From positions 248,001-312,000 of the forward strand of contig OZ237772.1 of assembly GCA_965178125.1 (NCBI GenBank): DNA of 64,000 nucleotides. Direction: 5' to 3'. The notes beneath the pieces are model-generated. The model was not told where the DNA came from. It searched no databases and saw only the letters and a list, made by a program, of their open reading frames with translations. Positions 4,473-29,182 of the stretch are shown piece after piece; the first letter of the stretch is position 1, and each line of letters opens with the position of its first letter. The position numbers were made by a program, and so were the translations under genes. The stretch comes from Bilabrum cf. latius (taxonomy: Eukaryota).

Positions 4473-5904
4473 TAAGAGGTCAATATTAACCACTTCACAA
4501 CATCTTAAGCCGTAGTCCTTCATAATGTCCTTCACTTGAACATAATAATTTAATAGCTATTTATTCATATATCTACCTAATTTAATACCTTCGCGCCGTT
4601 AATGTCTATCTGTTAGACCTTTACTTTACTTAATCTGTTGAGTGAATCCCTAGCCTAAGTCTTAGGATATGCCCGCCCGAAATTGCGGAAATATATAGTC
4701 ATTTAAGAATATATGTTCGCAATTCTGGGCGCGTAGGTGTATTGAGTTTTATATTATGATTTGGTTTTAAGTATCAATTGACATTTACCACTTTAGAAAA
4801 TAACTAAATAAATACTTAAAGAGATTGACAGAAGTATTAAAGTCTTTTTAATACTTCCAATGAAAAATTTAAATTAATAAATAAAACTAAACTAATATAT
4901 CAACTTAATTTATCTCTTTTTTTATTACTTGTCAATCTATACTTAAATAATTGAATATTTAAATATAACTAGAAGGAGATATTAATCACTTTATAAAGTC
5001 TTTTATATGTCATCTCTTCAAAACTTCAAATATAAGGGTATCCCCTTAAAAATACATTCTTTTATCTATCGCCCGAAATTGCGGTAATATTATAGCTATT
5101 CAAGATATATTTCTGCAATTCTGGGCGCGTAGGTGTATTGATTTTTATTTTTCATAATTCTTTAAATATGTTAAAGTCCTTTGTTTGAGTATATGATATA
5201 AAGGAATACAAAGCGGGATAACTTAAAAATGATAAATGTTTTGACGATGACTTTAAAATGACTCAATGAACTGGTTTATGTCAAGTGTATTACTTTGAAA
5301 TGATTAATCACTAGATTAAATGGAAAATATAGGATAATAAAATATGGTATAGTATAATACTAGCGCCCGAAATTGCGGTAATATATTAGGATATTAAGAT
5401 ATATTGTCGCAATTCTGGGCGCGTAGGTGTATTGAGTTTTATATTTTGTTAATTTTGACATAGTTATCTTATAGAGGTGTAATTTTGTAATAAAGATATT
5501 TCTAGTATGTGCTATATTAAATGTCCAGAAATGACGGCCCGAAATTGCGGAAATATATTAGGATATTAAGAGATATTGTCGCAATTCTGGGCGCGTAGGT
5601 GTCTTCAATAATTAATAATCAACTACTTCTTTATTTTGATTAATTTTTTTGACTTACCGTTCATTTTATTGACCACTTAACGGGATATCACAAAAAGACT
5701 TAACCACTTGACGAGATATTTTAAAATAACTAATAATAAATATGACCGCCCCAAATTGTATCTCCAGATATGACCGCCCCAAATTGTATCTCCAGATATG
5801 ACCGCCCCAAATTGCGGAAATATATAAGTATCAAGAAAATTATGTTTGCAATTCTGGGCGCTCACCCGTATTCAATTTTACATATTCACTAACTCATACC
5901 ACTT
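4372..5904 (+). repeat. Left terminal inverted repeat (1533 bp)
   Basis: Reverse complement of 27678-29182 apart from the asymmetric hairpin bulges and one extra 28-bp unit. Confidence 0.92.
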
Positions 5905-6095
5905 GAAGTGGTCCATTTGATCTTGTGTTCATATTTAGAATGTCCTTTAACTTGTATCAATGTATTGAGTACTTCTTCTAACTAGTCCTTAACAAATGAT
6001 TTTGTCTTATGATATGTCTTGGTAGTCTTCACCTATTTAATAACTAATTTACAAGTCTTACCGACAATATACTAAGTTAATAAATCTTGTATCAT
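5886..6095 (-). CDS. Small viral hypothetical protein (69 aa, TAG=Gln)
   Basis: ATG in AT-rich context, open through TAG codons to TGA; divergent from the 6104 gene. Confidence 0.5.
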
Positions 6096-6103
6096 AATAT
6101 ATT

Positions 6104-6511
6104 ATGTATGAGATAATTATTGATGGATTCAAATATAAACCCTCTACTCGTAGAAATAAGAAATATGATGTATTCAAAAATGGTAAGTATATCACTAGCT
6201 TTGGTGATGCACGATATGCTCAATACTTTGATTTGATTGGTAAGTATGGAGATAATAACCATATTGACCCTAAAAGACGACGCCTATACTACCGAAGACA
6301 CGGGAAGACTACCGATACTAATAGCTCAAAATATCACAGTCATAAAATCTTATGGGGAAGTGATAATGCTATAAAGGACTACTTAACAAAACTAGCCAAT
6401 GGAGTATTAGATGTAAAAAGGTATGTTAAAGGGGATACTTTGGAAAAATGGTTAGATGACTATAGGTCTAAAGTGGACGCAAGACTGAAACAATTAAAAA
6501 TATTAAATTAA
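6104..6511 (+). CDS. Basic viral protein resembling a small conserved NCLDV/virophage family (DUF5754-like)
   Basis: PSTRRNKKYDV...SFGDARY..Y...H.DPKRRRLYYRRH...ILW pattern recalled from large-DNA-virus proteins; TAA stop. Confidence 0.6.
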   Translation: MYEIIIDGFKYKPSTRRNKKYDVFKNGKYITSFGDARYAQYFDLIGKYGDNNHIDPKRRRLYYRRHGKTTDTNSSKYHSHKILWGSDNAIKDYLTKLANGVLDVKRYVKGDTLEKWLDDYRSKVDARLKQLKILN

Positions 6512-6668
6512 AAAGTCAATACGCCTAAACGCCCAGAATTGCGAAAATATATCTTGAATAGCTATAATATTACCGCAATTTCGGGCGCCCAAATTTGAAT
6601 CGAGCTTAAGACATCTCGTTTAATTAGACTTAAAAATAATATATTATTATAGTATATACTATATTATA

Positions 6669-7202
6669 ATGTGCTATAAATGTCGTAACTTCATAATCAA
6701 TAAGCTAAAGATTAATGACTGGAATAAGATAGCCCCTCTATTAATACCAGCTGGAGAGACTAGAGAAGAAGACGGAAAGTGTATCTGTGATCACCAAATT
6801 AAGGAAGTTCATTTCGTTGAGTATCCCCCAACTGGTGATATATTTAAATTAGGTTCTGAATGTATTAATAACACATTCGAAAAGGATCATGATGTGTATA
6901 AGGCTTGTATGTATAAGACTTGTGATGTATGCTCTTGTGTTGTTAAACGTAGTAGCTGGAAAAGTCATATTAAATCCATTAAACACGAATTAAATAAAGA
7001 CATATTAAAAGATAAGAGTAGATGCACTGATTGCGATGAGTTCATTGAAAAACATCAATATAAAAAGACTTGTCTTAGTTGTTATAATAAAAAGAGGAAA
7101 TACTCACAATGTAAGAAATGTGAAAAGTATCTTATTAAACCAGGAGCCACTTTCTGGTTTTGTTATGACTGTAACTAGAAGAGAAAGAAATATAAGAAAT
7201 AA
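6669..7202 (+). CDS. Multi-zinc-finger viral protein
   Basis: CICDH...GSECI, C2H2-like CDVC...HIKSIKH and several CxxC pairs; reads through TAG 7176 to TAA 7200. Confidence 0.75.
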
Positions 7203-7242
7203 TGTTTAATTTACGCCAACATATTATATCGTCTTTATATAT

Positions 7243-7476
7243 ATGTACGACTTGAAAATTATAATGTCTCCCAAGTTTTTAAAAGCTTGTAAAAATAATA
7301 AAGTTATTGAAAAGGCTATAAAAGCTATAGAGGACAATTTAAAAGATGAAATTAAATTATGTTTTGATGGCAATGAGTGGGATATGTCAAATGGATCATA
7401 GACTCTTTTTTATAATCTTCAAAGTAAAGAAGAACGAGAAGAAATATTAAAGAAAAATGGAACAATTACAGCATAA
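7243..7476 (+). CDS. Small viral hypothetical protein (77 aa)
   Basis: Preceded by CGCCAA...TATATAT motif; one TAG; TAA stop. Confidence 0.6.
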
Positions 7477-7562
7477 ACAACTAGAAGAAATAACAGAAGA
7501 CAATATGTTAAAAAATCGTTTAATTAACGCCAAAATTTATATCTACTATATATATAGTAAAT

Positions 7563-9218
7563 ATGACTAATAAAGGCAAGACATACACTAGAGGTAAAAT
7601 ATCTTACACGTATGGTGATGAACCGACAAAAAATCAAAAAGATAGTGATAATTTAGAAGCCACTATTAAGGGACTACTTGATAAAGGATTTGAAGAGGTA
7701 CCAACTACCAAAGCAAGTATTAAAAAAATACCTTTATATTCTTATGTATCTTATGTAAGTAATATCAAGGGAAAGCCACTATTTAGAAGAGGTGGGGTAA
7801 TTAACTCAATATAGAAGGATGGAGACTATTTCACTTTATATAACTTAGTGAGTCGTGTTCATTTTAGCGTTCAATAGTCTAACCTAGTTCGTCTTTTTTA
7901 TAAGATGACTAAAGCTTAGACGAAAAAACTTAATAAACCAACCGGTAAATTAATTGAAGTAGAAGATGAGGACGACAAAGACAAATTTAATTATAAACCA
8001 ATATTAAAGAAACTATATTATGAAGAAGGTAATGTAGTCAGTCGTGATGCGTTATATGACCTAGCTAGACAAAAAGATAAACGTATTAAAAGACGACAAG
8101 TAGAAAAGTGGTTAAATAACTAGATGCTCCACCAATTGACCAAAAAACGACCTAAACAGTCAGCAGTAAGTTCTTTTGTACCTACTAAGCCTTTCTCAAT
8201 TTACGCCTTGGACTTAATAGACATGCAAAAGTATTCAGACACTAATGACGGCTATAATTGGATATTAAATATAATGGATATATTCACAAAATACCTATGG
8301 AGTATTTCATTAAAAGATAAGACATTAGTTAATATAATTCGTGAGATGAAGAAACTATTTAAGAAACCTAATTGGAGAAAACCGACTGTTATGTTAAGTG
8401 ATAATGAGTTTAATAAAGAGGCATATATTAAATTTATGAATGACAATGACATAAAACCACTATTCACCATCGCAGGAAATCCATAGTCTAATGGTGCAGT
8501 TGAAAGACTTAATAGGACTATAAAAGAATAGATTAGAAAAGACTTTGCTATTAAGAATGACAGTGATGGTGTTTGGCATACGTCATTATAGAGACTAGTA
8601 AGAGCATATAATAAGAGAAAACACAACACTATAGGAATGTCTCCACTAGAAGCAATGAAACCCGAAAATTTAGAAGTAGTTAGATCTAGAATTGAAAATA
8701 AGAAATTATCAAATAATTTTGACGGGAATGATAAAGATCTTAATGTAGGGGATAGAGTTAGAGTATTACTTGAGAAGAACAAGTTTAAAGGAAATTTATT
8801 TAATTGGTCTAGAGAAGTCTTCACTGTTAGATAGAAGACCAAACCAAGAAATCCTAAGTAGAGGATTAAATATAAAGTAATGGACAAAGAGGGAGAACCT
8901 CTTACTGGATTCTTTAATGCTTCACAGTTATAGAAAATAGACAATGTAGAACACGAAGATAAGGTAAATGATGACATAGACAAGGAAAGTGAAGAGCCTG
9001 AAATTGATAATGTTGAAGGTTTAGAAGTAGAACCAGACACAATAGAGAAGTTTTTAGATAAAAGACAAAATAAAGATAGACTTATTGAATACTTAGTCAA
9101 ATATAAGGGATATTCTAATAAGTTTAATGAATGGATTACCCGTAAGAAATTAGAATAGGATTATGGGAAAGACCAAATACGACCACTTGCGAAAGACTAT
9201 TCTGATAGATAGAGATAA
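7563..9218 (+). CDS. Retroviral-type (rve) DDE integrase with C-terminal chromodomain (551 aa)
   Basis: Single frame through ~12 TAG codons; YALDLIDM, MLSDNEF, NP(TAG=Q)SNGAVERLNRTIK; chromo-like IEKFLDKR...EYLVKYKGYSNKFNEW; TAA stop. Confidence 0.95.
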
Positions 9219-9448
9219 TTAATCTAGTAATATACTTTATGGCATAATACCAGCGCCCCAAATTGCGATAATATATTAGGATATTAAGATATATTTCCGC
9301 AATTCTGGGCGCGTAGGTGTATTGATTTTTATAATTTTATCATTTTATGTTAGCCAGTGTATAGATACGACTTTTGAAATATTAATTTTTTCTAGTATTT
9401 ACCATATTAATATAAAACAAAGTCAAAGAAATTATTTATAATAAGTAT

Positions 9449-10129
9449 ATGGAATTGTTAAATATAACAAGATACAAAAATAAAGACCTTCTAAAAAGAG
9501 TAGTCAAGTTAAGTGAAAAGTACAAGTGGTCTCGTGATGACTTAAAAATGTTATGGATTAACAAGCATTATTCAAGTTTATAGGGTGAAATAGATGATGA
9601 AGGGGACGAGATAGCAACTATAAATTTAGTGAGACAACCGTCTAAAATAGAACCTATCTAGTTAAAACCTCCACAATTAGAACGACAATAGGCTATATTG
9701 GAAGATGTTGAATTAGATAGCGAAGACATAGAGGATAATAAAGAGGAAGACTATTTGAATGATACATATAGTGATACAAGTAGTGAAGTAGTGAGTGAAG
9801 TCATTGAAGAGAAACCAATTAAAGAGAAACCAAAACCAAAAATCAATATTAGTGATCTTACAGTGAGTGATAAACCTGAATATGTTTATTGTGTAGAGAT
9901 TAATGATACAAAGGTATATTTTAACAAAAAGAATACATAGACTTATCCTGATGCTTTAAGAAGAGGTAAATCACACGCTGATAAAATGAGAAAGCGAGTA
10001 TTAGGACATATTCATTTTGATGAGACCGATATGTATGACAGCAACTTATGGTATGCTAAAGTGTGCTGGGGTGATAGTGATAAAATTCATGATAACTTTA
10101 CAAAGTTTAAAAATATCTTATTAAAATGA
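9449..10129 (+). CDS. Viral hypothetical protein with acidic central region (226 aa)
   Basis: Continuous frame with TAG=Gln ending at TGA. Confidence 0.7.
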
Positions 10130-10148
10130 CCACTATATATATAGGTAA

Positions 10149-10853
10149 ATGAAAAACACAATTTGGAAGTTTTTAAATGAATACTTTGATGTCTTTAGTT
10201 TAATACTTAAAATACGAGACGAAAACCCTAGTGATGTCATAAGTACTATAATAGCAATGTATGAAGAGAGCGAAATAGAAGACCCAAAAGAGATCCATAA
10301 ACATATGAGTGAAATACGTCATAACTTGGAACTTAGATTTAAAACAAAGTATGTTGAAGTATTAAGCACAGATCACGATGACAAAGCAGAAAGTTATCTC
10401 CATCTTAATAATATATTATGTAATATTGAAGGAGAGCAATATGTGGAGGATAGCAAAATCAAGATGTCCGAGAAAAAACAAGTATTTATAAAGACTTACG
10501 GTGATGTGGATAAATTCAATGACAAAACAACGGCATGAGCCGGAACGGCCACTGCCGCGCTGCCCCGCCCCCTTCCCTAAGGAAGGAGACGAGGGAATGC
10601 CTCGCAAGCTGCTGGTCGCACTGGCGGTTGCAACCTCGCGTTGGTAGACCGGAGCCTGTGTTCGAGTCTCGAACGCATCGCCACATCAACCCCGAACCCC
10701 ATTCGGCGTTAGCATTACGAGACTGTCCAAGAGATGGAACAAGAAGACGAAAAGACTAAAACAGGAGTAGAAAAAGAAATAGATCAAAAGTTAAGTCTAT
10801 TATGTAATACTTCTAAACAACCAGACAATATTTGTCTAGATTATAAATTGTAA
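10149..10853 (+). pseudogene. Viral hypothetical gene interrupted by a GC-rich insertion
   Basis: Same frame resumes after the insert (ETVQEMEQEDEKTK...DYKL, TAA); the insert introduces TGA at 10536. Confidence 0.7.
10502..10717 (+). mobile_element. Short GC-rich nested element, diverged relative of the 14912-15562 copies (left boundary 10502-10527 uncertain)
   Basis: Shares CCGCCCCT, TCGCAAGC, TGGTCGCAC, CGGTYGCAACC and CATCAACMCCGAACCCCATYCGGCGTTAG with the minus strand of 14912-15562. Confidence 0.7.
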
Positions 10854-10965
10854 TATCAGTATGTATTTTAATTATAAAAATACAAATTGACAGGTTAGAT
10901 ACGACCGCCCCAAATTGCGGATATATTATAGCTATTCAAGATATATTTTCGCAATTCTGGGCGTC

Positions 10966-11280
10966 TCACCGTGTTGATTTTTCCACACGTTTTAACTCAT
11001 TCATAATTTCTAAATCAAGTAAGCCATTAATAATACGAAAATCTTTGTAATCTTGCGCCATCTAAAACATTCCTTCATATTTAGGCAACATAGCCATTTT
11101 AAGACCTAGGATAGACTTAATATCTTCGTAGGTAATAATCTAGTCTTTTTCTACTTCTTTTAGCTCTTCAACTTCACAAATACGAAGGTCCTTTCCATCA
11201 AAAAATTGATCAAAAGCTGTCTTTACCTTTTTTAATATATTGTTCAAACTTTTTATGTTATAAATATTATTAAAGTTCAT
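10966..11280 (-). CDS. Viral hypothetical protein (104 aa)
   Basis: CGCCAAAAAATATTTACTATATATATATAGAAATG promoter/start; two TAG; TGA stop; bounded by two palindromic repeats. Confidence 0.7.
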
Positions 11281-11436
11281 TTCTATATATATATAGTAAA
11301 TATTTTTTGGCGGAATAATTAAACTTAGGATCTAACCGCCCGAAATTGCGGAAATATTATAGCTATTCAAGATATATTTGTGCAATTCTGGGCGCGTAGG
11401 CGTATTGACTTTTGTATTATTTTGTATTTATTTGTA

Positions 11437-12075
11437 TTATATTTGGTACCCTAACTAGAGGCAATTCCTCAATTTATCGTGAAGCTATTCGTAAGTATTA
11501 TAAATGTAATAGCTAGAAGGGTTCAACTCTTTGATATAAGAGTTACGGTCTTCTAACATAGACTTCTATTTATCTACTTTCTAATTCTTTAAAGTCTTCT
11601 AGAATAGTGAATTAGATGGAAGACATACAACTATACTTTCTTTTTTAAATAACTCATTAGCTAGACTTAACTCTTTAGTAAAGAATATTACTCTCTTCTC
11701 GCTACCTTCATTCAACCAGTTATCTTTTACCCATTGAAGGGCTTCTTTACTGGCTTTTCTATTAAGTATATTATAATTACCCCAATCACTTTTTAACTTA
11801 CATTCGTCTAGTTTCATAAGTAATTCGGGCTCCTAGACATATACTCCTAGAGTACTATCTAAATCAACAAGTAAACAGTCTTTAGAACTAGACCGTAATA
11901 TTTGACAAGCGGTAGACTTACCACTACCTTCAGGCACACAGATACATATTTTTTTACGTTTATGTAAAGGTTTATCCCATAACCACTACCAACAAGACAT
12001 ACCACCAGAGTATGCTAGAGGTAGTAAGACACTTAAACCTCCTACAACGACACTGCTTGAACTGATTCCATCCAT
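11437..12075 (-). CDS. P-loop NTPase/kinase-like protein with hydrophobic N-terminus (212 aa)
   Basis: ICICVPEGSGKST followed by LLVDLD; continuous with TAG=Gln; TAA stop. Confidence 0.65.
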
Positions 12076-12118
12076 TTTATTATATTAATAAAAAAGATAT
12101 TTCTATAATTAAACTCAA

Positions 12119-12841
12119 TTATCCTGTTAAGAAAATACAAGGTACGACTTTATATTCTACTCCATTAGCATCAGTAGAAGTACCACTTGAAAAGTCTTCA
12201 TCTACTAGAGCTTTTGCTACAATAGTCTAATCAACAGAGACTGGTTGAGGATTAGGCGCGTAGACATATCCACTATCAGAGCTATTTATTAAGTAGTCAC
12301 CCGCACTTACATCTCCTCCATTTTTATTTACTTTCACAGCTCCATCACCTAAAGATGCCACAAGTACTTTACCATCATCATGGTGTTCTCCTACATATAC
12401 TCCAAAAGGTGGTGAATGTTGAGATGCTTGACTTACGACATATTCATTAGTTGTGGGTCCTTTATTAACTACACTATCAAGAGTAACCACTGACCCAATA
12501 CCAGCTGGTAAACTAGAAGCAACATCACTACAAGATGCTACATGTGTACCGGTAAATGATAAGAAGTTGGTTGCTGTCATAGTACTGGTTTGAGTGCCAT
12601 CACCTGCGACATTGATTGAGATAGATGCACCTGCTGATGCTGAGTTTTTACCTATTCTCCATGTGAAAGACTTAGCATCTTCATTAGTACCACTCATAAT
12701 ATAGGGTAGTGATTGACCATTGAAGTTAAGTCCAAAGTTAGCGGCTCCATCAAAGCCTTCTGCTTTAATTGATTCTACTTCAATAGACTTACTCTTTAAT
12801 TCATATTCATTTTTGTTTAAGAGATTGTATATTCCTGCCAT
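12119..12841 (-). CDS. Fibre/spike-like protein with C-terminal intramolecular-chaperone-like (peptidase G2-like) domain
   Basis: Gly/Ser/Thr beta-rich N-half, then SFTGTH...VASLGDGAVKV...GDYLINSS..GY...TIVAKAL..DF...VPCIF, as recalled from virus fibre C-termini. Confidence 0.6.
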
Positions 12842-13084
12842 TACTTATATTATATTAGCTAGACTAGATATTTTTTTTTTAAATTACGAGATTTTAAAAA
12901 GTTAGTAGTATAAGATATAGTATAATACTAGCGCCCCAAATTGCGATAATATATTAGGATATTAAGATATATTTCCGCAATTCTGGGCGCGTAGGCGTAT
13001 TGATTTTTATAATTTAGTCATTTTTAATATAGCCACCTCTTACAATGTAATATTTTTAAATTAAAATATTATAGTATATACCAT

Positions 13085-14527
13085 TTAAAGACTTCTTAAT
13101 CTTGAATCTAACCAAGATATTAGAGTATCAAGTCTCTTATTAAGACCTGAACCTTCACCAGTCTTACTTTCACTTGCTCCACTAGATGATTGACCTTGTG
13201 CTTCTTGTTCTTGTTCTTCCCGTTCTTGTGCTGCTCGTGCTGCTCTTGTTCTTGCTTCTTGACCTTTACCAAGATCTTCACCTGCATCGCTTGCTACAAA
13301 TTCTCCATCTGGTTGTCTTTCTAATAGTGTCCCTTCTGTCTCATCATCTAAAGGTTCATTACCTCTTGCTATCTATTCAGCAGCTTCATTCATTACATCA
13401 CTTAATGCGGCTTCTCTTCGTAAGTCTGGATCTTTTTCCTTAGCTCGTCTAAGTCTTTCTTTAAGTGGAGTTCCTGACGGTTCTGCACGACTAAATGGGT
13501 TTGTTTGTCTTTTTCTAAGTGATAATTGTCTTTCAATATCTTTCTTTGCGTCATCAAACTTGATTCTATTTAAATTTACAAATCTAGTTTTACTGTCAAG
13601 TCCCGATTGTCTTCCAGTCTTAATATCTTGAAATAAGCTCTATAAATCATAATACTACATATCATCTATTGGCACACCATCATATTCATCACCTAATAGT
13701 GCTTTAAGTCTATCTTTTAGTACTGGTGCTTTAGATGTGGCTTTTGTTTTATAAATATCATTTATTGCTTCCATTCTTTTATTAAGTACATCTCTTTTTA
13801 GTTTAACTCGATCAGTTTGGCTTCGTAATCGTTCCAAAGCATAGCCTTTTGACTTTTTATCTCCTAATCTTTCTAATAGAGGTACTATTTGTGTTCCTTT
13901 TGCTCTTTGTCTAACTTTTACAAGTCTTGATGCCATTGAATTAAGTTGAGCCTTAGAGAGACCATTTAAAGTTGAATCACTTACACCTCTCTCTTTAAGA
14001 AACTTCTTCAACTAGTCTACTGTTAAGTCATTCTCTAAGTCTTTGACATCTTTAGGTAAATTGTCTATCTCTTCTGCTTCAATAAATAAGTTATTTAATG
14101 CGTCGTTAAGTTTTGACTCAGCTTTACCTTTTTGAAATAGAGTATTAGATGAGTTCATATATGGAATATTCTATATCATCTTAGCAATAGCTTCAGCATC
14201 TTCATCAAGTAGTTCATTATCTTTAGCTAGTCTTACAACTTGATCTATATCTGCTACTTTATACTTTTTACCTTTCTTACTGTTATCTTTAACTCTTTTT
14301 AAAGTCCTTTTCATAAGATTTGCTATTCTTTTTAATTTTCTCTTTTCTTCTAATGGCATAAAGTCCTCTTCTAATTGAATTTTTTGTTTTCGTTTAGCTT
14401 CTCCTATAGCTGCTCTTATGGCTCTCTCTTCGTTTCTTACCTTTCGTCTTGCTTGACTTGTAGGGGCTCTACTTTCCACAAGTCCATCGAGTAAGTCTTC
14501 CAATACTGCTGTTCTTTTTTTAGACAT
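13085..14527 (-). CDS. Charged helical viral protein with SAP/HeH-like DNA-binding motif (480 aa)
   Basis: Single frame with TAG=Gln joining 14171-14527 and 13655-14011; LTVD(Q)LKKFLKERGV...LSKAQL. Confidence 0.7.
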
Positions 14528-14566
14528 CGTATAATTATATTATGATAATAGATAATATTATTAAAT

Positions 14567-15661: not shown

Positions 15662-15695
15662 TATAATAAAGAACTATAATATTTCTTATTAATAT

Positions 15696-16514: not shown

Positions 16515-16708
16515 ATACACCTAAACGCCCAGAATTGCAGACATAATTTTCTTGATACTTATATATTTCCGCAATTTGGGGCGCCCTATATTGTGAGATT
16601 TTCATTAGATTGACCCGAAAATGTAAAACCTCTAACAGCCTACGCGCCCAGAATTGCACAAATATATCTTAAATAGCTATAATATTACCGCAATTTGGGG
16701 CGGTCGTC

Positions 16709-17230: not shown

Positions 17231-17375
17231 AATTCTATATATTTATATGATATTTTAATCATATTCTTAAGACTGTGCACTCTAAAATGAATATTTGAAA
17301 TGGCTACTTCTCACAATATACCTTTTGAACCCACTAATTATTAGAAAAATAATAAATATTAACATATAGTATATA

Positions 17376-18443: not shown

Positions 18444-18462
18444 TTTTCTTAGTATTAAGTAT

Positions 18463-19011
18463 ATGGATATAACCACTGCATTAAGTCCTGAAGAGGTACA
18501 AAGACTATACTTTACATTTACAAAGTAGCATATACCAGTTATAATGTATGAAGAAATAAGTGATACTAATAACATCAGACAATTTCTAGATGAAAATCCT
18601 TTATTTGTCCTTTATTATCCTAACTTAGTAGAAGGAGCAACAATGAGCGGTCATTATACTGCGGTCATATTTAATAAATCAAAGAATACTCTTTATTTTT
18701 GGGATAGTTATGGTCAATTACCTGATACTCATATTCCAGTCGTAGGAGGAGTCATAGACCCATAGAAGCTATATGATAGAAGTAGTCTTCTAATAGATCA
18801 CGTATTAGATGCTGGTATTAATGTTGACTATTCAAATCAAAAGAATCAATTAATATCAAATAACTCTGCCACATGCGGTCGGTGGAGTGTGCTCAGACTT
18901 CTCTTTCATAATTTAACGAATGATTAGTTTAATAGTCAATTAAAGAAGGCTTTTAAAAAGTATGGAGGAGGACTAGATAATGATGAACTTATTACTTTGA
19001 TAATTAGTTAA
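18463..19011 (+). CDS. Virion maturation cysteine protease (adenain/Ulp1-like)
   Basis: GHYTAV, YFWDSYG and NQ......ATCGRW catalytic motifs; sits between ATPase and penton. Confidence 0.92.
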
Positions 19012-19371
19012 TATGACATATACCATAAATTTTTAGATATTGAAAATTGATATCTATAAGGTGGCCATATTAAAAAGACTAAAATATAAAAATGAATACG
19101 GGTACGCGCCCAGAATTGCGGAAATATATCTTAATATCCTAATATATTATCGCAATTTGGGGCGCTGGTATTATACTATATCTTAAGATACTAAATTTTT
19201 AAAATTTCGGAATATTGGATTTTTTCAATGAGTCAAATAATTAATAAAAACTTTTTCAAAAAGTCAATACGGGTACGCGCCCAGAATTGCGGAAATATAT
19301 CTTAAATAGCTATAATATTACCGCAATTTGGGGCATTAGACAAGACTTATTTTCTTGATAAATGTTATAGA

Positions 19372-20298
19372 ATGGTAGAGATTCAAGAACCAGATATCTT
19401 TTATATTAACTCATAGGATACTATAACATCTATTAATACTAATAGACCAGTATCAATACATGAACAGCGTCAAGGTAATATCTTGACAAATTCACAAAAC
19501 TACTTATTATCACTTGACCGATGGACTCTTAAATGTCGTATTCCTTTATTTGTAGCAAGTAAAGAAGTAAAGAATAGCGATAATTAGTCAATTTATAAGA
19601 TGTCGTTTGTGAAGAAGAGTGATGGAACTACTTACACTCGTAATATTGTCTTAACCAAGTCGTTATATTATAGTCTTAAGACCCTATCTAATGAATTTAA
19701 TAATACTCTTAGTGATTTATGTGGAGATGCTAGTATTCCAACTGATAGTATAGTATTTGAATATCACGGTAAGACTAAAACTTTTAGTTTCACCCGTTTA
19801 GCGGCTTTTACAAGTGCGTGGACTTTAAGTTTTAACTTTCCTTTATTCTCTATATTTGAGACATTTGAATATGACGATGAAGGTAAAGACATCAAGAGTG
19901 ATACTTATATAAATCTATTAGATGGATATAATGAATAGAGTGCTTCTACCTTAGATTAGTTTCCTACTATGGAGTATATTCAAATTATTAGTCCATCACT
20001 TCCAATACTTCCAGAATTTACGCCATCATATAAAAGTACATCTAGTACAGAGATACAAAGTGAAAATATCTTAAGTGATTTCAAGATAGACAATACAACA
20101 GGAACGAGTTTTATTAAAATAAACTTTAGTAGTGGAGGAAATCATAGATGGCAATAGTTCTATAGATCAGCATTTAATAGTTATAGTATAGTACCGTATT
20201 TTAGAGATACTTTTGGAAACTTATACGAAATACCCTTTACTTTTGGACAAGGACTTAATATAAAAGCTCTATTTAAAAGTAAAAAGTTAATAACTTAA
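19372..20298 (+). CDS. Minor capsid (penton) protein
   Basis: YLLSLDRW....IPLF near the N-terminus, LPILPE, ILSDF, C-terminal YFRDTFGNLYEI...IKALFKSK as in virophage pentons; immediately upstream of MCP. Confidence 0.8.
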
Positions 20299-20340
20299 AG
20301 TAAAAAATAAATAAATATCTTTAGTCTTAATATATTTATA

Positions 20341-22227
20341 ATGTCTGATATGGATAATGTACCTGTAGCAGCACAAAGCAAAGTCGTAGATGACGTCTCA
20401 GAACTACCAGTAACTCAAATAGCTGACGAAAAACTCAACTTTGTGGGTGATAGTCAAGCTATTACTCTAGGAACTACCCTTGGATACTCTTCCAAGTTCC
20501 AAAACCACTATGAACCAGATGGTGGTAACTCTAGCGCAACTAATGCATTTAGAAGTAATTACACTTTTGTCGTGCCATCAAATCAAGGAATGACTGACAG
20601 TAATCCCCGTCTAAGAGTTTCATTTGACGTATACATCTATGATAGTTAGAACAATGGAGCAGTAGCTCAAACTGATATCGTCAATAAGGTAGCCCCTTCT
20701 ACATTTATGGTAAATTCAATGATCACAAGTTCCACAGTTAAAATGGGAGACTTATCTCGTAGTTCATCACCTTATCAATTAGTCAATTTAATAGCTAGAA
20801 GTCTTGACCGTGCCACTCTAGCACAAATAAGTCCTGTCTTTTAGGCTGATAACACTTGGGAATTTAATACTGCCGCAAATGGTCTTGCTAAGTCTGTCCT
20901 TCAATGGGGTGTAAATGATGATAGTATTATGGAAGCTCGCGGTCCTGGTAAGAATTACCGCGCAACACTTGAAAAAGTGGATGCTAATACTCCAATACCT
21001 AATAATAATGTAACACCAACTCAAGACTATGTCAAATTACATATTGAAATCTCTGAAGCACTTCTTGCACGTCCTTTCCAATATATGATGGGTGGTAATG
21101 CTAGACCTTTTGTTGATCATCCACAATTAAATGTTAATTTACAAATGAGAAATAACTTAATTGATAAGATGTTTAATACTTCAAGTGATTGGAATGGAGA
21201 CTATGCTTTTGCTTTATCCGATTGCTAGATCCATTTTGATGTCTTTACTTATAATACTCATCTTAACTTCTTGAAGAAAGTACCTAAACAAATATTCTAC
21301 AACTCTGTTGACTTTGAACTACATGAAGAGCCTAAACTTGATAATCCTATCACTACTAAAGGTGTCCATACTTTTAATAATTATCAACTTTAGACTTGCC
21401 CTTCTTGGTTTGCTGTGTGCTTAGTTGATTCTCAATATGGAGAAGCTAGTGGTACACCTCATAGAACACTTGCCATTAACAATATTAAAGTACAACTTAG
21501 GTCTTAGGGTTCTATTTTAGGAGAACTTACACAAGACGATATCTTTAGACTTAGTGAAAGAAATGGATCAAATAGTGAGTATGCTTCTTTTACTAACTTA
21601 GATGTAACTGTAGGAGGTGCTTCTAAAGTATACGGATCTAATGGCTGGCTCTTATTTAGACTTAGTGATTTAAATACTCCTGAAACTATTCAAAGCAACA
21701 GTGCTGACCCTATTAGTATTCGTGTTCAAGTAGCCTATGACGAACCCCCAACCGCTGCTATGTCTCAAGGATATAAAGCTCAATTATTCTGTGCCTATGA
21801 CAAGATTATCGTGAATACTAGAGGTGCCGCTATTGAATGGCGTGAAGATAGTGCTTCTGTTGACCCTGAGAAAGTGGCTAAACCTTCTAATTATACATTT
21901 TCTAATATGAACTACTCTAAGAACGTATTAGGTGGAAGACGTCGTAAAGTGATGCAATTCTTTAAGAGAGCCTTTAACAAAGCTAAAGACTTAGGACGTA
22001 AAGTGGTAGACTTTGGAAAGAAAGCTAAAGCTAAATTTGATAAAGTGAAACCAGCTCTTCGTAAAGCAAGGCAAGCAGTAAGTGAATACTTACCCGATGA
22101 AGTGAATGACTTAGCTGAACGTGTTGGAGCAGGTCTTTTAACTAGTGGTGGAAGTCTTTTGACCAGTGGAGGTAAGAAATTAACTAAGGCTCAACTTATG
22201 AAACTTAGAAAGTAGCTCAATATGTGA
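20341..22227 (+). CDS. Major capsid protein (virophage-type, 628 aa)
   Basis: One frame joining the 20341, 20929 and 21760 fragments with TAG=Gln; beta-rich, ISEALLARPF; di-glycine sites and basic C-terminal tail; gene order ATPase-PRO-penton-MCP. Confidence 0.85.
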
Positions 22228-22384
22228 GTCGTAAATTATTAATTAATATTTAAAAGTTATAAATATTGACTAAATTTAAAAACTCAATACGGGTACGCGC
22301 CCAGAATTGCGAAAATATATCTTGAATAGCTATAATATTACCGCAATTTGGGGCGGTCATACCTTAAGACTAGTTTAAATATTA

Positions 22385-22417
22385 CGCCAAAAAATATCCA
22401 CTATATATATAGTTATG
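22385..22417 (+). promoter_or_regulatory. Conserved viral promoter-like motif CGCCAAAAAATATCCACTATATATATAG just upstream of ATG
   Basis: Related copies precede starts at 7243, 7563, 11280(-), 22415, 23331 and 23921, partially 10149. Confidence 0.7.
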
Positions 22418-22837
22418 GCAGCAGTATCACCGTGTGAAGACTTACTTTATATGGAGTATTCATTCTTATTCTTACCACATAGAGAAGACCCAACACTTAA
22501 ATCTCAAAAGGTTTACTTAGATGATGAACTTGAAGGAGATCCTGAAGACATTGTAATAGATAAAGATTAGATATAGGTAAATAATAGAGGTCATATAAAG
22601 ACATATGTAAGTGAAGGAGGCTTTACAAAGTTAAAGGTAGGATAGATAATTGAAGAGATGGAGCAAGAGGTGCGTAATTAGAATGGTATTCATTATGATT
22701 GTATTTTTTATCATAAAGTTGAACACGACACCAGCACAGATATTTATAAAGTAGTATGGGGGTGGTATCCAGCAGACTTTCCAACAAATGGATGCGACCC
22801 TGCTATCTTGTATAAGAAACCCCCTAATATGGATTAA
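22415..22837 (+). CDS. Viral hypothetical acidic protein (140 aa)
   Basis: Promoter motif, continuous frame with four TAG, TAA stop. Confidence 0.7.
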
Positions 22838-22842
22838 TTATT

Positions 22843-23160
22843 AAAAAAATTCTTTGAGCTAGTAATTATACCGATGGTTTGACTACTTGGCGAAGTCATT
22901 CGTAAGTCATTGTTGTAGCGGAGCCAGAACGTGAACTGATGCACCTGAAACCCTATTAAGTCTTACGACTAAGTCTGCTACAACCACTTACGACTACTTC
23001 TACAGTATCCAAACTCCCTTCAAAGACTTGCAAGACGTGTGCTTTGTCATAAGTATGACTTACAGAACGACTCACGGCGATGTCAGTGGTGGGAATCGAA
23101 CCCACGACCTTGACTTTGTGAAACAATCACGATATCACTAGACCAAGACCACAACGCACC
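22843..23160 (-). ncRNA. Putative Pol III transcript: degenerate tRNA-like head, long imperfect hairpin, oligo-T terminator
   Basis: Minus strand TGGTCTAGTG (A-box-like), AGGTC-GTGGGTTCGATTCCCAC (T-arm/B box); nested pairings across 22851-23026; T7 run at 22843-22849. Confidence 0.6.
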
Positions 23161-23195
23161 AAGAGGTAAAAAATATTATATTCAAATAAATTTAA

Positions 23196-23929
23196 AAATT
23201 CAATACACCTACGCGCCCAGAATTGCGGAAATATATCTTAAATAGCTATAATATTACCGCAATTTCGGGCGGTCATATCTTAAGACTAGTTTATTACTTT
23301 CGCCAAAAAATATCCACTATATATATAGTAATGTCAGATTATTTAGACTTCCATTTAATTAAACAAGTTGATGATATATGTTTCACTGGTGTTGAATTCT
23401 ATTAGGGATATCGAATAACTCAAGGTGAACAGCTTAAACAACTTAATTACTTATTCGTAGATAACAAAAAGGATATTGATAAGTTTGTATCTATTTCATT
23501 TGTAAAAGAAGCAGATAAGGATGAGTTTGAGCTATTACTGGTTAATGAAAATGGAAAATTAGAAGACGACACAGATATATTTAAAACAGAGAGAGACCTT
23601 ATTAAGTACTTGAAAGAAATAGATTTAAACAAAAAAGACTATTCAAATGATGATGTTATGTTGTCAACATTTCCAATTATAATGATGAGCATACGAGATC
23701 TAGTAATCAATAGCAATATTGGTTCAATTGAGAGTATCAAAAAAGGTGATACAGATCAATTTGACCACTTGAAAGATAACTAAATAAATTCAATACACGT
23801 ACGCGCCCAGAATTGCGGAAATATATCTTAAATAGCTATAATATTACCGCAATTTCGGGCGGTCATATCTTAAGACTAGTTTATTACTTTCGCCAAAAAA
23901 TATCCACTATATATATAGTAATGTCAGAT
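23196..23929 (+). repeat. ~144-bp direct repeat (23196-23339 and 23786-23929): palindrome + promoter + ATGTCAGAT
   Basis: Near-identical blocks precede two otherwise unrelated ORFs, both starting MSD. Confidence 0.9.
23331..23783 (+). CDS. Viral hypothetical protein (150 aa)
   Basis: Promoter motif, one TAG, TAA stop. Confidence 0.7.
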
Positions 23930-24271
23930 AAAGAAGATATCAAAATTGAACTATCTCAAAATTTTATAGATGAATGTCTTGTTAAAGGTGTAGGTGTCGA
24001 TGATGTAGTCAGTAGTATAGGTAAAAGTATTGAGAATCACTTTGATAAATATGTATGGATGAAACCAAAAGACAAAGGTGATGGTTATCGTTAGAATGTC
24101 TTTAGTTTTAAATTCGACAATATTATCAAGAAACTCGAAAGTACATTGGAACAGTTAGAATATGAAGAGCAAGTGAAACACGTCTAGGAGCTGATGTATC
24201 GTGTTGAAAGAAGTGAATGTGAAAGGAAGAAGAGAGAAGAAAAAATTAAAAAGACAAAAAGAGACCACTAA
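23921..24271 (+). CDS. Viral hypothetical protein (116 aa)
   Basis: Promoter motif, two TAG, TAA stop. Confidence 0.7.
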
Positions 24272-24333
24272 GTCATTTTATATAAGGTATGTATTATTAA
24301 GTCTTATTAAGTTTTTTATTAATAAGTCATAAT

Positions 24334-27132
24334 TTAATTTTGTTGTTCTAGTGGATCATTATCCTCATCAACAAATAAAGCGGGGTCTAAGTCAACCTCT
24401 ATCTCTTCATCGGGTAATTGAACCTCTTCATCATCAACAAATATATCTACTTCACGAGTCTTTTTCTTGTTAGACCAGATATATTCCATCTCATCAATAA
24501 TATCCTAATTAAATTCTACATCATAGTTAATTTTCTTTTTCTTACAAGTCATAAATATGTCTTTCCCAAACATTGATTTATATACTTTAAGTATTTCGTA
24601 ATAAAGACCTTTATCAGTGGATAAGTCAACTTTACTTCTTCTTTGGCAGTCATACACTGTCCTATATTCATCTGTTAAGTCTTGATCTAATACTTTCTTT
24701 TTGATATTATAATCAAGATTAGTTCTTTTAAGACCTAAAGTATCAATCATCTTATTAAGTAAGACTAATTTTCTAGAACTAGACTTAGCATTGATAATAT
24801 CAAACTCGCCTTTATTAATTGCTTTCACAAGTAAGTGCTTATCATCTTGTCTAAAGAATTTATTGAAATTAAATAAATTAGATAACTTACCTTTATTAAT
24901 AAAGTACTCTTTGTATTTGTCAATATCACCTTCATCTAAGTCTAAATATTTATTAATCTTCTTGACATTAAGACAATTAATATCAAAATTTTCAAGTTGT
25001 TTTTCTTTAATGGTATCTTTGATTTCTTTATCCTTACATCTGGTGATCTTAACAGATAAATCATAAGACACGTCATAACCGGTATCAATTAACTACTTGA
25101 TCATATGTAATTTAGGGTTTGTCTTATAACAATCTACCTTGTAAAGATAATTACGATATAGTTTTTTGAATATGATTTTAACTTTGCTCATTTCTTCTTC
25201 TACTTTGTCTTCTACTTCTACCTCGTTGAAGTCGGGATATGTATCACTGACAAATTTAACTAATTCTTCGTAGTCTTTTAAAGAGGTAGCCATAAAAGAT
25301 TTAACTTGTGAAAGACTTTCATATGTGCTAGATCGTCCTTTCTAGTAATCAAAAAATATAGTGATATGTGATGGGTTTCTACATCTGTTAAGCTATTGAA
25401 CCATTTGGGGAGGTGTGATAGTATGACCTTTGAAATAACCAAAGACTGGTCTAGTCATAGTGCTATCTATCCCGTAAATGACTTTAGGTGAGAAGATAAT
25501 GATATCAAACAAATCCATATCATAGTCTTTGTCTTCGCTTTCTGCTGTAAGTATTAAGATTTTATTTAATTTCTTATCTTTCTCGTTTTCTATTATTTTA
25601 AGACTAATTAACTCATTGATTATATCAGCTTTTGTCTTACTATCACTAGCAAGCATAAATTTCTTGTGTTTCATTAACTCATCTCTAAAAGTCTGTTCGT
25701 CATTAACAAATACAGTTTTGGTGCCCTTGAACCTGTTTCTGTCATTCCTAATATATTGATAATCTAATTTTAATAATTCTAAGAAATATAGAGCATCTTG
25801 AGATAAGTCAGCATCTGCTACTATGAACTACTTACAAGTGGTAAGAGCACGAATAAGAGTAATGAAACTCATTGGTCGCCTACCATATAAAGTCGTAGAA
25901 CTTAAACAGTGTTCTAAGATACTATTAAACTCATCTAAAAAGACAATATAATCCTTAAAGTTATAATTGCTAAGACTAACAATACTTTCAGGAGTAATAA
26001 CAATACTATCACCCTATTTGTATTTATGGTCTTGATAGAATTTAGTTGATTTTGGAAGACTACGCATCTATTGCTTACCTAATAAAATACGACTAACAAC
26101 TGATAAAAAGCTGTCATCTACTCTATTAAATAAATCATTAGCAGCAGTTGTCTTTCCAGAACCAGCCCCCGACTTAACGGCATAGTTGATACCTTTCTTA
26201 AAGAATTTAATATAACGACCTTTGTCGTCAGCAGTCAAATATCTACGGTCAATCTTCTAATTGACTTTCTTGACTACTTTATTCTTGAATATCTTGTATC
26301 GATAATATAGGCTAAGTCGTTTCTTTTCACTATCTAACTAATTAAAGAACCATTCAACACATTGAAAAGTGGAATTTTGTAATAATCGAGTAAAAATTAT
26401 CTTGTTCTTAGTCGACTAATAGCTTTCTACGTCTTGTTTGCTCCATTCATCAAATATATCATATACCTTATTACCATCTACTGGATTTAAGTATTTAGCG
26501 ATATAACTTGTAGCTCTACAAACTAGATGCCAGTTATATGAATTAGAATAATACTCTTTACCTAATTGATATAAGTATTGTTTGTATTCTTCGGGTTTAA
26601 TCATATAACGGTAGTCTTCAGCTGTAAGTTGTGGTGAATAGATATTTTGTAGTATGAACATCTTGACGTCAGTTGGTATTCTTTTCACGGATGTCTTTTG
26701 TATTAGTTCGTATTTCTTACCGTTGATAGAGCTAGGAGGACACATGATAAAGCTATCATTTGTGATCACATCTATATGTTCTTTTCTATTTACTGACCTC
26801 TTACTAAACTCTTCTTCATACTTAAAATACAAATGATATCCATTGGGAGACTTGACAGTGTAAGTATTCATCTCTTGAATAAACTTATCAACACTACCAT
26901 ATTCCGCAATAAACTTACCATTTTGAAATTCAGTTTTATTTTTCTCTTTTTCACAATCTAAGTCAAGGACAAAGAAACCTGCACGTCTTCCAGTAAGTAA
27001 TCCAACATTAAGATTTGACTTTCTGGTGATAAGTTTAGTAGATTCCAAATTCTACCAAGACTTAATAAGTGGTTGTTTAGAGTTGTGAGCTATTGAGAAA
27101 TAAACAGGGTTAGATATGTGTTCGGTCGTCAT
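24334..27132 (-). CDS. Prim-Pol primase/polymerase + PriCT + SF2 (origin-binding-protein-like) helicase fusion (932 aa)
   Basis: SKQPLIKSW(Q), NVGLLTG, FVLDLD, SPNGYHLYF; FDEWSK; KSGAGSGKTT, VVSRILL, FLDEFNS, ADADLS, SPKVIYGID, MVQ(Q)LNRCR; single frame to TAA. Confidence 0.88.
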
Positions 27133-27162
27133 TCTAGTATATACTATACTAAAGATAATTTT

Positions 27163-27375
27163 TTAAGTCATTTTCTAGACGCACTATTTTGGCTTAAAGG
27201 ATTGAGATGGATTTTCGCGCACAACTAGAGTATTTTTAAATTTTTCAATTTCTGCTGGGGATTTCCCGATTAGTAAATAACTTATAGTCTCTTGAAACTC
27301 TATTGGTAAGTCTTGTAATTGATGTATTGGTTTATTGATAACTTGATTATTTGATTTGGTATCTATTAAATCCAT
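27163..27375 (-). CDS. Small viral hypothetical protein (70 aa)
   Basis: ATG in AT-rich context; reads through two TAG to TAA. Confidence 0.5.
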
Positions 27376-27407
27376 TATTAATAATACTATAATAATAGAA
27401 TATATTT

Positions 27408-27617
27408 TTAAGTCTTATTTAATCCTTCTGTATCTGGTTCATCCTTAACCTGTTTTCTCTTCTAATAGTACCCCTTCCATTTCTCTTGATTCTTTTGGTA
27501 ATATTTCTATTTAGCTTTTTTAATAGCTTCTTTCTTTTTGGTCTCCTATTCCTTGAGTCTTTGATAATCTTCCATAATGTCTTGAACCTATTTTAATACA
27601 TCTTTAATATCTGGCAT
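27408..27617 (-). CDS. Small Lys/Gln-rich helical viral protein (69 aa)
   Basis: MPDIKDVLK(Q)...KYYQKNQEKWKGYY; four TAG; TAA stop. Confidence 0.6.
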
Positions 27618-27677
27618 TACTATAGTAATATACTAGATAAATCTTTAAGTTTTTAAAACTAGAAAATGACTTAAAAT

Positions 27678-29182
27678 AAGTGGTATGAGTTAGTGAATAT
27701 GTAAAATTGAATACGGGTGAGCGCCCAGAATTGCAAACATAATTTTCTTGATACTTATATATTTCCGCAATTTGGGGCGGTCATATCTGGAGATACAATT
27801 TGGGGCGGTCATATTTATTATTAGTTATTTTAAAATATCTCGTCAAGTGGTTAAGTCTTTTTGTGATATCCCGTTAAGTGGTCAATAAAATGAACGGTAA
27901 GTCAAAAAAATTAATCAAAATAAAGAAGTAGTTGATTATTAATTATTGAAGACACCTACGCGCCCAGAATTGCGACAATATCTCTTAATATCCTAATATA
28001 TTTCCGCAATTTCGGGCCGTCATTTCTGGACATTTAATATAGCACATACTAGAAATATCTTTATTACAAAATTACACCTCTATAAGATAACTATGTCAAA
28101 ATTAACAAAATATAAAACTCAATACACCTACGCGCCCAGAATTGCGACAATATATCTTAATATCCTAATATATTACCGCAATTTCGGGCGCTAGTATTAT
28201 ACTATACCATATTTTATTATCCTATATTTTCCATTTAATCTAGTGATTAATCATTTCAAAGTAATACACTTGACATAAACCAGTTCATTGAGTCATTTTA
28301 AAGTCATCGTCAAAACATTTATCATTTTTAAGTTATCCCGCTTTGTATTCCTTTATATCATATACTCAAACAAAGGACTTTAACATATTTAAAGAATTAT
28401 GAAAAATAAAAATCAATACACCTACGCGCCCAGAATTGCAGAAATATATCTTGAATAGCTATAATATTACCGCAATTTCGGGCGATAGATAAAAGAATGT
28501 ATTTTTAAGGGGATACCCTTATATTTGAAGTTTTGAAGAGATGACATATAAAAGACTTTATAAAGTGATTAATATCTCCTTCTAGTTATATTTAAATATT
28601 CAATTATTTAAGTATAGATTGACAAGTAATAAAAAAAGAGATAAATTAAGTTGATATATTAGTTTAGTTTTATTTATTAATTTAAATTTTTCATTGGAAG
28701 TATTAAAAAGACTTTAATACTTCTGTCAATCTCTTTAAGTATTTATTTAGTTATTTTCTAAAGTGGTAAATGTCAATTGATACTTAAAACCAAATCATAA
28801 TATAAAACTCAATACACCTACGCGCCCAGAATTGCGAACATATATTCTTAAATGACTATATATTTCCGCAATTTCGGGCGGGCATATCCTAAGACTTAGG
28901 CTAGGGATTCACTCAACAGATTAAGTAAAGTAAAGGTCTAACAGATAGACATTAACGGCGCGAAGGTATTAAATTAGGTAGATATATGAATAAATAGCTA
29001 TTAAATTATTATGTTCAAGTGAAGGACATTATGAAGGACTACGGCTTAAGATGTTGTGAAGTGGTTAATATTGACCTCTTATGTTATCCGCCAAAATGTG
29101 TGTAGTTTTTATATAAGTAAACTCTATTTCTACTATATAGTAGAAATAGAGTTATCATAACTCCACATTTTGGCGGATAACA
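27678..29182 (-). repeat. Right terminal inverted repeat (1505 bp)
   Basis: Reverse complement of the left TIR; lacks one 28-bp tandem unit. Confidence 0.92.
29082..29182. other. Right terminal 101-bp imperfect hairpin, identical on the + strand to 4372-4472
   Basis: Direct comparison of the two sequences. Confidence 0.92.

Follow-up and report, generated by a model that had tools for sequence, protein, structure and literature searches.

In herpes simplex virus 1 (HSV-1), the replication origin oriS carries two inverted boxes around an AT-rich spacer of constrained length; according to the available part of PMC12543377, Boxes 1 and 2 serve the origin-binding protein (OBP, UL9), whose DNA-binding domain comprises residues 536-851, and a 6-bp deletion in the spacer abolishes replication. 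The homologous regions (hrs) of baculoviruses are dispersed, AT-rich, imperfect intergenic palindromes that have been proposed as multiple origins (PMC6669502, in part). UL9-related proteins are on record for mriyaviruses, mimivirus (R8) and African swine fever virus (pF1055L) (PMC11253617), UL9 kinship has been noted for similar proteins in phages (PMC5862659), and fusions of an archaeo-eukaryotic primase to a superfamily 2 helicase (AEP-SF2, or Prim-S2H) are in print as a minority replicase type of polinton-like viruses (PLVs) (bioRxiv 2026.10.13.758929, PMC12220804). As far as the available text of these sources goes, AEP-SF2 replicases and their UL9 kinship are thus already known, and the pairing of such a helicase with a defined site is the addition made here. 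The subject is a 64,000-nt stretch of the protist Bilabrum cf. latius (contig OZ237772.1, positions 248,001 to 312,000; hereafter the window), in which an integrated virophage at 4372-29182 carries 22 fixed-spacer palindromes and encodes a primase-polymerase (Prim-Pol)/OBP-like replicase. The palindromes are probably binding sites for this replicase, and we put at roughly 0.65 the probability that they act as multiple oriS-like replication origins or helicase-loading sites.

Each palindrome has the form AATTGC-N32-GCAATT, with 7-bp arms and a 30-bp spacer in an imperfect unit of 58 bp overall. Between 4674 and 28880 there are 22 copies, versus 0.003 expected by chance from shuffles of the element. 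A first-pass annotation of the sequence alone had proposed about 22 palindromes, with a spacer of exactly 30 bp in the four copies counted, five copies in each terminal inverted repeat (TIR), the others at gene boundaries, and a forward orientation on the left and reverse on the right except near 6515. The results bore this out: the number is exactly 22, five copies lie in each TIR, and the 12 internal ones are all intergenic once TAG is read as glutamine. Forward palindromes lie at 4681, 5077, 5371, 5543, 5810, 9261, 10913, 11344 and 12939, and reverse ones at 6537, which is the exception, and at all 12 positions from 16533 onward. The spacer measures 30 bp in 22/22 copies of the window and in 268/268 copies when sibling insertions are included (12 stitched stretches, representing 11 sibling insertions and a twelfth in part, were scanned along with the window, with lenient arms and a permitted gap of 20 to 42), and the variable length that would speak against such a site did not arise.

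Two further statements of that annotation held in part. The spacer sequence does vary, with 12 distinct versions in the window, but it is not free sequence: it falls into few families, its inner ATA positions are invariant, and the 268 copies hold only 20 spacer sequences, 82% AT. The inner arms are constant as described, but the first base of the enclosing outer box (CGCCC/GGGCG) varies. The two arms of the unit differ at two fixed positions, so the unit is directional. An inner word of the spacer starts at position 18 in 195 copies, at 16 in 38 and at 17 in 35; it slides by 1-2 bp yet the total stays constant, and slips on one side are therefore offset on the other. An AT-rich spacer between two inverted boxes, as in oriS-type origins, is found both here and in the relatives described below, and a spacer length that stays fixed through 20 spacer sequences and a sliding inner word agrees with the length constraint of such origins; dispersed, imperfect and intergenic, the palindromes also have the features of baculovirus hrs. 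A 28-bp tandem repeat with one half-site per unit (5740-5814) adjoins the innermost palindrome of the left TIR, and its unit number differs between copies of the element and between both TIRs of one copy. Apart from this half-site array, no third box as in oriS was seen by eye.

The aligned copies allowed covariation to be weighed against conservation. Across 31 distinct units, no variation is seen at ten arm pairs and at three inner pairs, two arm positions are mismatched in 30 of 31, four positions beyond the arms change uncompensated, and no arm pair is swapped. The palindromes conserve letters and distance, not pairing, because the arms are invariant, the mismatch is fixed and compensatory change does not occur.

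The candidate binder is the 932-aa replicase of the element. A replicase profile built from 20 homologues, obtained by a protein collection search, matched HSV-1 OBP first (E 4e-9) and pRN1 ORF904 second, and one of the 20 homologues matched Pfam Herpes_ori_bp. For P0001, a near-identical sibling of the window replicase modelled with a predicted local distance difference test score (pLDDT) of 79, the top four Foldseek matches were OBP-oriS complexes (E 1e-12, 473-760 columns). When the C-terminal domain of the window replicase was folded alone (pLDDT 86), OBP residues 544-820 ranked first of 48,161 chains (Z 5.0, root-mean-square deviation 5.0, 162 aligned). As judged from sequence and models, kinship of the helicase with OBP is firm, and kinship of the C-terminal domain with the OBP DNA-binding domain is suggestive. 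A UL9/OBP-family SF2 helicase, as oriS-type replication calls for, is accordingly encoded in this genome. ESM Atlas gave no usable match to the C-terminal domain, and the RVKNL string of the OBP recognition motif was not seen in the window replicase.

The pairing of helicase and site was then followed in environmental genomes. The helicase search was read for the best 80 of 122 IMG/VR loci, most of them PLV-like and about ten from virophages, and these were scanned for inverted arms of 6 bp, whatever their sequence, that flank an AT-rich centre and recur with the same gap. In 43/80 helicase loci, compared with 0/240 shuffles, the scan detected at least three dispersed sites. The arms differ by lineage, whereas the plan is constant: an outer GC box, a short A/T tract, an inner box and an AT-rich centre, within 43-54 bp. 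Controls were PLV-type packaging ATPase loci (best 80 of 328, 74 of them new) and virophage capsid loci (best 80 of 114). After near-identical loci had been merged, and with groups of at least 10 kb counted (8 shorter groups with helicase and 33 unknown being left out), at least three sites occurred in 46/65 helicase-positive groups, in 0/5 groups with a superfamily 3 helicase (SF3, DUF5906) and in 0/33 groups where no replicase was detected (with relatedness ignored, Fisher p is 5e-14, and 0.004 versus SF3 alone). One 8-kb fragment of unknown replicase is positive and sits inside a carrier clade. Scanned without a motif, the 46 groups have 2.5 sites per 10 kb and the 19 helicase-positive groups that did not pass this strict test have 1.3, compared with 0.34 in SF3 groups, 0.54 in the unknown groups and 0.2-0.5 in shuffles. 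In the ATPase tree, three separate SF3 lineages without sites (L187, L172 and L162, 16-20 kb read) stand among carriers, and in the capsid tree, L270, with the helicase and four sites, shares a clade with two site-free SF3 groups. The letters of the arms agree with the helicase tree even where capsid types differ (FastTree, with a long branch for the window); the virophage L113 and the PLV-like contig L098 have sister helicases and similar arms.

A second virophage, family B, is nested inside two sibling insertions. The copy at L029:3540 to L031:9500 lies in one of them. The element measures 26 kb, encodes the same replicase type, with a helicase 33% and a capsid 22% identical to those of the window family, and has 427-bp TIRs ending in C/G runs, a 5-bp duplication and a GC-richer segment near one end. 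Five palindromic sites occur in it, one arm of which has the inner box of the window family.

The first-pass suggestion of a dimeric site around an unwinding element, plausibly bound by the encoded OBP-like helicase, is thus supported by comparison, through the kinship of the helicase with HSV-1 OBP, the co-occurrence of helicase and sites, and the lack of sites with SF3. The same survey bears on the idea that a host or helper giant-virus protein, or a SAP-domain protein, binds the sites in place of the replicase. There is a SAP-like stretch at 13085-14527 (E 0.004, below cut-off), and virophages have helper-type promoter motifs (PMC8547959, in part); against this, the arm letters change with the helicase, and when proteins of at most 400 aa were clustered, none of the 28 largest families tracks the sites or is common to positive virophages and positive PLV-like groups yet absent from negatives. 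Within this comparison only the helicase tracked the sites, so that the SAP-like protein, also put forward as a partner in the first-pass annotation, is not a likely one, and a binder other than the replicase is highly improbable.

Placement in the relatives is intergenic, with 1 of 142 sites inside an open reading frame (ORF) (28 positive loci, not fully dereplicated). Over 22 loci, the gap equals the mode of its genome in 106/128 sites and departs from it by one in 20 and by two in 2, and inter-site spacing has a median of 3.4 kb and a coefficient of variation of 0.5. Flanking gene directions at sites (57, 22, 22, 19) match the background (185, 75, 73, 70), which argues that the sites are neither only promoters nor only terminators. 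Local gene direction and position in the left or right half explain the orientation of the palindromes about equally (10/12 vs 11/12 internal sites); a KOPS- or Ter-like left/right polarity was rejected on this ground and on the mixed orientation in relatives. Among the groups whose replicase ORF is complete (41), 34 of the 38 with enough flank have a site at most 1 kb upstream of its start, often about 100-130 bp away, and 27/35 have one at most 1 kb downstream; regular spacing around a 3-kb gene could yield part of this proximity.

Hairpin-type transcription terminators like those of Mimivirus and Sputnik were the alternative named in the first-pass annotation. Taken more broadly, the sites could be transcription signals, acting as RNA terminator hairpins or for polyadenylation as in these two viruses and joined to a promoter as in the promoter early stem-loops (PeSLs) of T4-type phages. 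The 3'-end hairpin of Mimivirus and Sputnik has a long perfect stem and a very short loop, and keeps structure rather than sequence. Either strand of the palindrome is predicted to fold at about -21 kcal/mol, but with a loop of 8-12 nt, fixed mismatches, invariant arm letters, uncompensated changes and frequent unpaired substitutions in the inner stem; Rfam gave no match at the palindromes. Within the window, a stop codon is no more than about 130 bp away from 10/12 internal sites, three sites have a shared promoter-like block after them with an ATG 60 bp on, and the shuffling of cassettes is like that of PeSLs (PMC2839356, in part). On the other side, ten copies lie in gene-free terminal repeats, 12/22 gene junctions of the element, one of them convergent, have no site, and the presence of sites tracks the replicase, not the capsid module or the likely helper. 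Divergent gene pairs flank 22 sites in the relatives and convergent pairs also flank 22, as the background predicts, which weakens the terminator alternative, and a role as transcription signals is accordingly quite improbable.

For the replicase-bound origin, the following mechanism is proposed. Two replicase units would bind the inverted arms through their C-terminal domains, each half-site being formed by outer GC box, short A/T tract and inner box; the fixed gap would set the phase of the two units flanking the AT-rich spacer, whose centre would melt, and the fused Prim-Pol would then prime synthesis. Sites every few kb might, speculatively, offset a short reach of the replicase, and multiple hrs may likewise do so in baculoviruses (PMC6669502, in part). 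More broadly, we hold at even odds that a widespread group of virophages and PLVs replicates from many oriS-like origins a few kb apart by means of a single-chain primase-polymerase/OBP helicase, that protein and site co-vary and move together between capsid lineages, and that herpesviruses, with OBP and oriS, represent a single branch of an initiator-origin system that is older and mobile and has dozens of natural specificities.

Several points weigh against this interpretation. HSV uses few origins for a far larger genome, so that 5-22 sites in 25 kb are unexplained, and in family B the gaps between sites measure 4.5-10.6 kb. The strict test fails in 19/65 helicase-positive groups, three of which (L042, L101 and L215) have no site even in the relaxed scan; a proven alternative replicase is present in 5 groups only, most carriers come from one PLV-like clade, and vertical descent alone suffices for arms to follow the helicase tree. 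The sequence match of the replicase to OBP is confined to the first helicase lobe, the C-terminal match is weak (Z 5.0 vs 4.9 for unrelated helical proteins), and Foldseek returned no match to the C-terminal domain at E 0.001. The closeness of internal sites to stop codons belongs here as well.

The ends of the element raise a further possibility. Both ends consist of an imperfect palindrome of 101 bp, which takes either of two forms that are inverse complements of each other, and the four flip/flop combinations occur 4, 3, 3 and 2 times among twelve two-ended insertions (three unpaired ends left out); 5-bp duplications flank 10/10 insertions with both ends displayed. In parvoviruses and poxviruses, flip/flop ends are an established product of hairpin transfer or concatemer resolution. 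The hairpins here suggest hairpin-ended free genomes, which the integrase may open at the CA. A loose contig end at 29182 was rejected as evidence for a closed hairpin, as the palindrome itself explains it. In Halocafeteria endogenous virophages, elements with a replicase other than protein-primed DNA polymerase B and an rve integrase likewise have a palindrome at the TIR tip beside the target duplication, whereas the available part of that preprint reports neither flip/flop isomers nor internal fixed-spacer repeats (bioRxiv 2026.07.28.741278). The replicase might then bind the palindromes mainly for autoregulation of its promoter, for tethering of genomes in recombination or for enhancer-like control, with replication starting from the terminal hairpins. 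Such a division of labour is unlikely, although it draws on several observations: in many relatives a site is centred 80-130 bp ahead of the replicase ATG, the flip/flop ends could self-prime, the cassettes have their borders at sites, two oriS molecules are held together by UL9 (PMC13458718, in part), and baculovirus hrs are origins as well as enhancers (PMC6669502, in part). Opposed to it, a fixed-length AT-rich spacer suits melting better than an operator, and sites also occur between convergent genes with no promoter near. Moreover, family B has its sites with plain C/G-run ends and no hairpin, so the terminal hairpins are a feature separate from the sites, and the sites are independent of hairpin priming.

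In addition to their probable role in replication, the palindromes here also serve as crossover points for the gain and loss of single-gene cassettes. Among 12 copies of the element there are ten gene-content differences, nested mobile elements set aside (counted by eye, two events from BLAST gaps only), and 8/10 have a boundary inside a repeat or at most about 30 bp from one, repeats being present at 10/22 gene junctions. Three cassettes consist of exactly one gene plus one repeat (431, 525 and 590 bp). The copies act as crossover points because the site has multiplied to 22 with homogenised flanks, and the exchange needs only homologous recombination between them; UL9-like tethering of two origins could, by analogy and as speculation, aid it. 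The exact gene-plus-repeat composition also fits site-specific recombination sites of the integron attC type, or small selfish repeats. The attC sites carry bulges, which the fixed mismatches resemble. Pfam, however, detected no tyrosine or serine recombinase among the 23 ORFs, which an integron would require; a 320-aa recombinase-like family, recognized by eye, is present in groups with sites as well as in groups without them, and is absent from this element; no target duplication was seen by eye at the repeats; and the copies in relatives share no flanks and are evenly spread. There is little chance that the palindromes are of this kind. In the C16 and C6b copies, a 221-aa ORF between the equivalents of 19164 and 19278 is GC-richer, has no TAG and contains a hydrophobic stretch; it looks like a recently captured foreign gene.

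The element that carries the palindromes forms an AT-rich island (28-35% GC) in host DNA of 55-70% GC, with TG..CA ends and a 5-bp target duplication, CAGCG. Pfam found an rve integrase with chromodomain, a Sputnik-type capsid domain (MCP_V20_C, E 3e-7), an ATPase, a weak cysteine protease (Peptidase_C57) and Prim-Pol among its 23 ORFs, and protein clustering placed its penton, ATPase and protease with virophage proteins. With major capsid protein, penton, packaging ATPase, cysteine protease and TIRs all present, the sequence identifies 4372-29182 as an integrated virophage in a protist genome. Reading TAG as glutamine opens 23 full genes, which end in TAA (17) or TGA (6), and TAG makes up 85/233 glutamine codons (36%) in them; a host transporter gene also reads through four TAGs. 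A decayed element, as the ORFs broken under the standard code might indicate, was rejected because TAG as glutamine restores them and does the same in a host gene. This reading of TAG is common to the host and both virophage families. The terminal motif occurs 27 times in the host genome, and therefore about 14 insertions are present; the 313 genome-wide palindrome matches are roughly 14 insertions x 22. A variant joining 23283 to 24303 was found in contigs of one of four sequencing runs, with little else there. A capsid protein search found no viral contig and only two outside relatives, at 86-88%. The exact palindrome repeat had 0 matches in IMG/VR, and 11 single matches in JGI metagenomes, none with similarity to the element, were taken as chance. 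All features are listed in Table 1.

Table 1. Coordinates of palindromes and other features of the virophage element in the window
Feature	Position	Strand	Remarks
Integrated virophage	4372..29182	.	Sputnik-type capsid module, rve integrase, Prim-Pol/OBP-like replicase; TG..CA, CAGCG duplication
Left TIR	4372..5904	+	Five palindromes; half-site array of 28-bp tandem units at 5740-5814
Left terminal 101-bp imperfect palindrome (hairpin)	4372..4472	+	'Flip' isomer
Palindrome 1	4674..4731	+	TIR
Palindrome 2	5070..5127	+	TIR
Palindrome 3	5364..5421	+	TIR
Palindrome 4	5536..5593	+	TIR
Palindrome 5	5803..5860	+	TIR, inner edge
Palindrome 6	6530..6587	-	209-aa gene in its place in two sibling copies
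rve integrase with chromodomain	7563..9218	+	Pfam
Palindrome 7	9254..9311	+	36 bp past integrase stop
Palindrome 8	10906..10963	+	Left border of 431-bp gene cassette (absent in 4/12 copies)
Palindrome 9	11337..11394	+	Right border of 431-bp cassette
Palindrome 10	12932..12989	+	
Palindrome 11	16526..16583	-	
Palindrome 12	16645..16702	-	
Morphogenetic block	17376..22227	+	Four genes, packaging ATPase to major capsid protein
Packaging ATPase	17376..18443	+	Morphogenetic block
Cysteine protease	18463..19011	+	Morphogenetic block
Palindrome 13	19107..19164	-	About 700 extra bp with 221-aa ORF between 13 and 14 in two siblings
Palindrome 14	19278..19335	-	Extra 525-bp gene-plus-repeat unit in one sibling copy
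Penton-like	19372..20298	+	Morphogenetic block
Major capsid protein (MCP_V20_C)	20341..22227	+	Morphogenetic block
Palindrome 15	22298..22355	-	Then shared promoter-like block, ATG 60 bp on
Palindrome 16	23214..23271	-	Left border of 590-bp gene cassette (absent in 8/12 copies)
Palindrome 17	23804..23861	-	Nearest site downstream of replicase gene
932-aa replicase	24334..27132	-	Prim-Pol (residues 13-153), UL9/OBP-like SF2 helicase, helical C-terminal domain; proposed palindrome binder
Right TIR	27678..29182	-	Five palindromes
Palindrome 18	27722..27779	-	TIR inner edge; nearest site upstream of replicase gene
Palindrome 19	27961..28018	-	TIR
Palindrome 20	28133..28190	-	TIR
Palindrome 21	28427..28484	-	TIR
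Palindrome 22	28823..28880	-	TIR
Right terminal 101-bp imperfect palindrome	29082..29182	+	Same as left in direct orientation, hence opposite ('flop') isomer

Other observations were made in the window. The promoter-like block (CGCC and an A run, then an alternating TA run directly before ATG) lies at 7198-7560, 11280-11320, 22366-22415, 23282-23331 and 23872-23921, preceding small accessory genes and the integrase, and its CGCC word is also found in the terminal hairpin. Near some promoters, words seen by eye are ones we take to be E2F-like. A 198-bp GC-rich insert at 10519-10717 is missing at the equivalent site in all sibling copies; the C25 copy carries a 4.5-kb insert whose ends are related to it. 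At 14912-15562, split direct repeats of 176 and 130 nt, GC-rich and in the order A-B-A-B, are probably the solo remnant of an Ngaro-like retrotransposon, their structure being as in the available part of PMC8547959, and the equivalent site of the C22 copy holds a 6.6-kb form with a long ORF. On the minus strand, 22845-23150 is a candidate RNA polymerase III-type RNA of about 300 nt with a tRNA-like head (a partial Rfam transfer-messenger RNA match, 20 bits, below cut-off), a long stem and a terminal T run; its 30-nt segment 22923-22950 has two unrelated alleles among 12 copies, like a swappable guide, while the RNA frame is conserved. In host DNA, the gene at 34263-41444 contains five 1533-bp tandem units, 97-98% identical, and encodes a coiled-coil protein.

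The proposed pairing bears on how virophages and PLVs without a protein-primed polymerase start replication and on the origin of the herpes OBP-oriS system; it gives a named protein, a defined site, natural arm and gap variants, and SF3 sister lineages as negative controls, and suggests a second use of origin repeats in virophages, as joints at which accessory genes are exchanged. T4-type PeSLs are likewise repeated intergenic units with single-gene gain, loss and replacement (PMC2839356, in part), but they are bacterial promoters with terminator stem-loops, whereas the core described here tracks the replicase and ignores gene direction. Baculovirus hrs have palindromes of about 30 bp bound by IE-1, a family without a Pfam match among the 23 ORFs of the element, whereas here a 17-30 bp spacer splits the arms and the candidate binder is a helicase. 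The AEP-SF2 replicases of PLVs, virophages and mriyaviruses have the same domain order as the virophage replicase, and the available text of those accounts names no cis-acting site for them; nothing tying AEP-SF2 or UL9-like replicases to fixed-spacer palindromes was found in the mainly open-access literature covered, where a figure in bioRxiv 2026.10.13.758929, not viewed, marks a palindromic repeat. A likeness of the arm core to HSV Box 1 (PMC12543377, in part) was not counted because its direction with respect to the spacer is reversed and the letters differ in other lineages. Unlike HSV, the virophages have 5-22 dispersed sites per 25-kb genome, lineage-specific box letters and a Prim-Pol fused to the helicase, and neither a third box or Box3-Box1 hairpin nor an ICP8-like partner was identified in them. 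By analogy, the palindromes resemble oriS in plan and are candidate members of the oriS class, and HSV-1 OBP, which is also an SF2 helicase with a helical C-terminal domain, is the closest solved relative of the virophage replicase.

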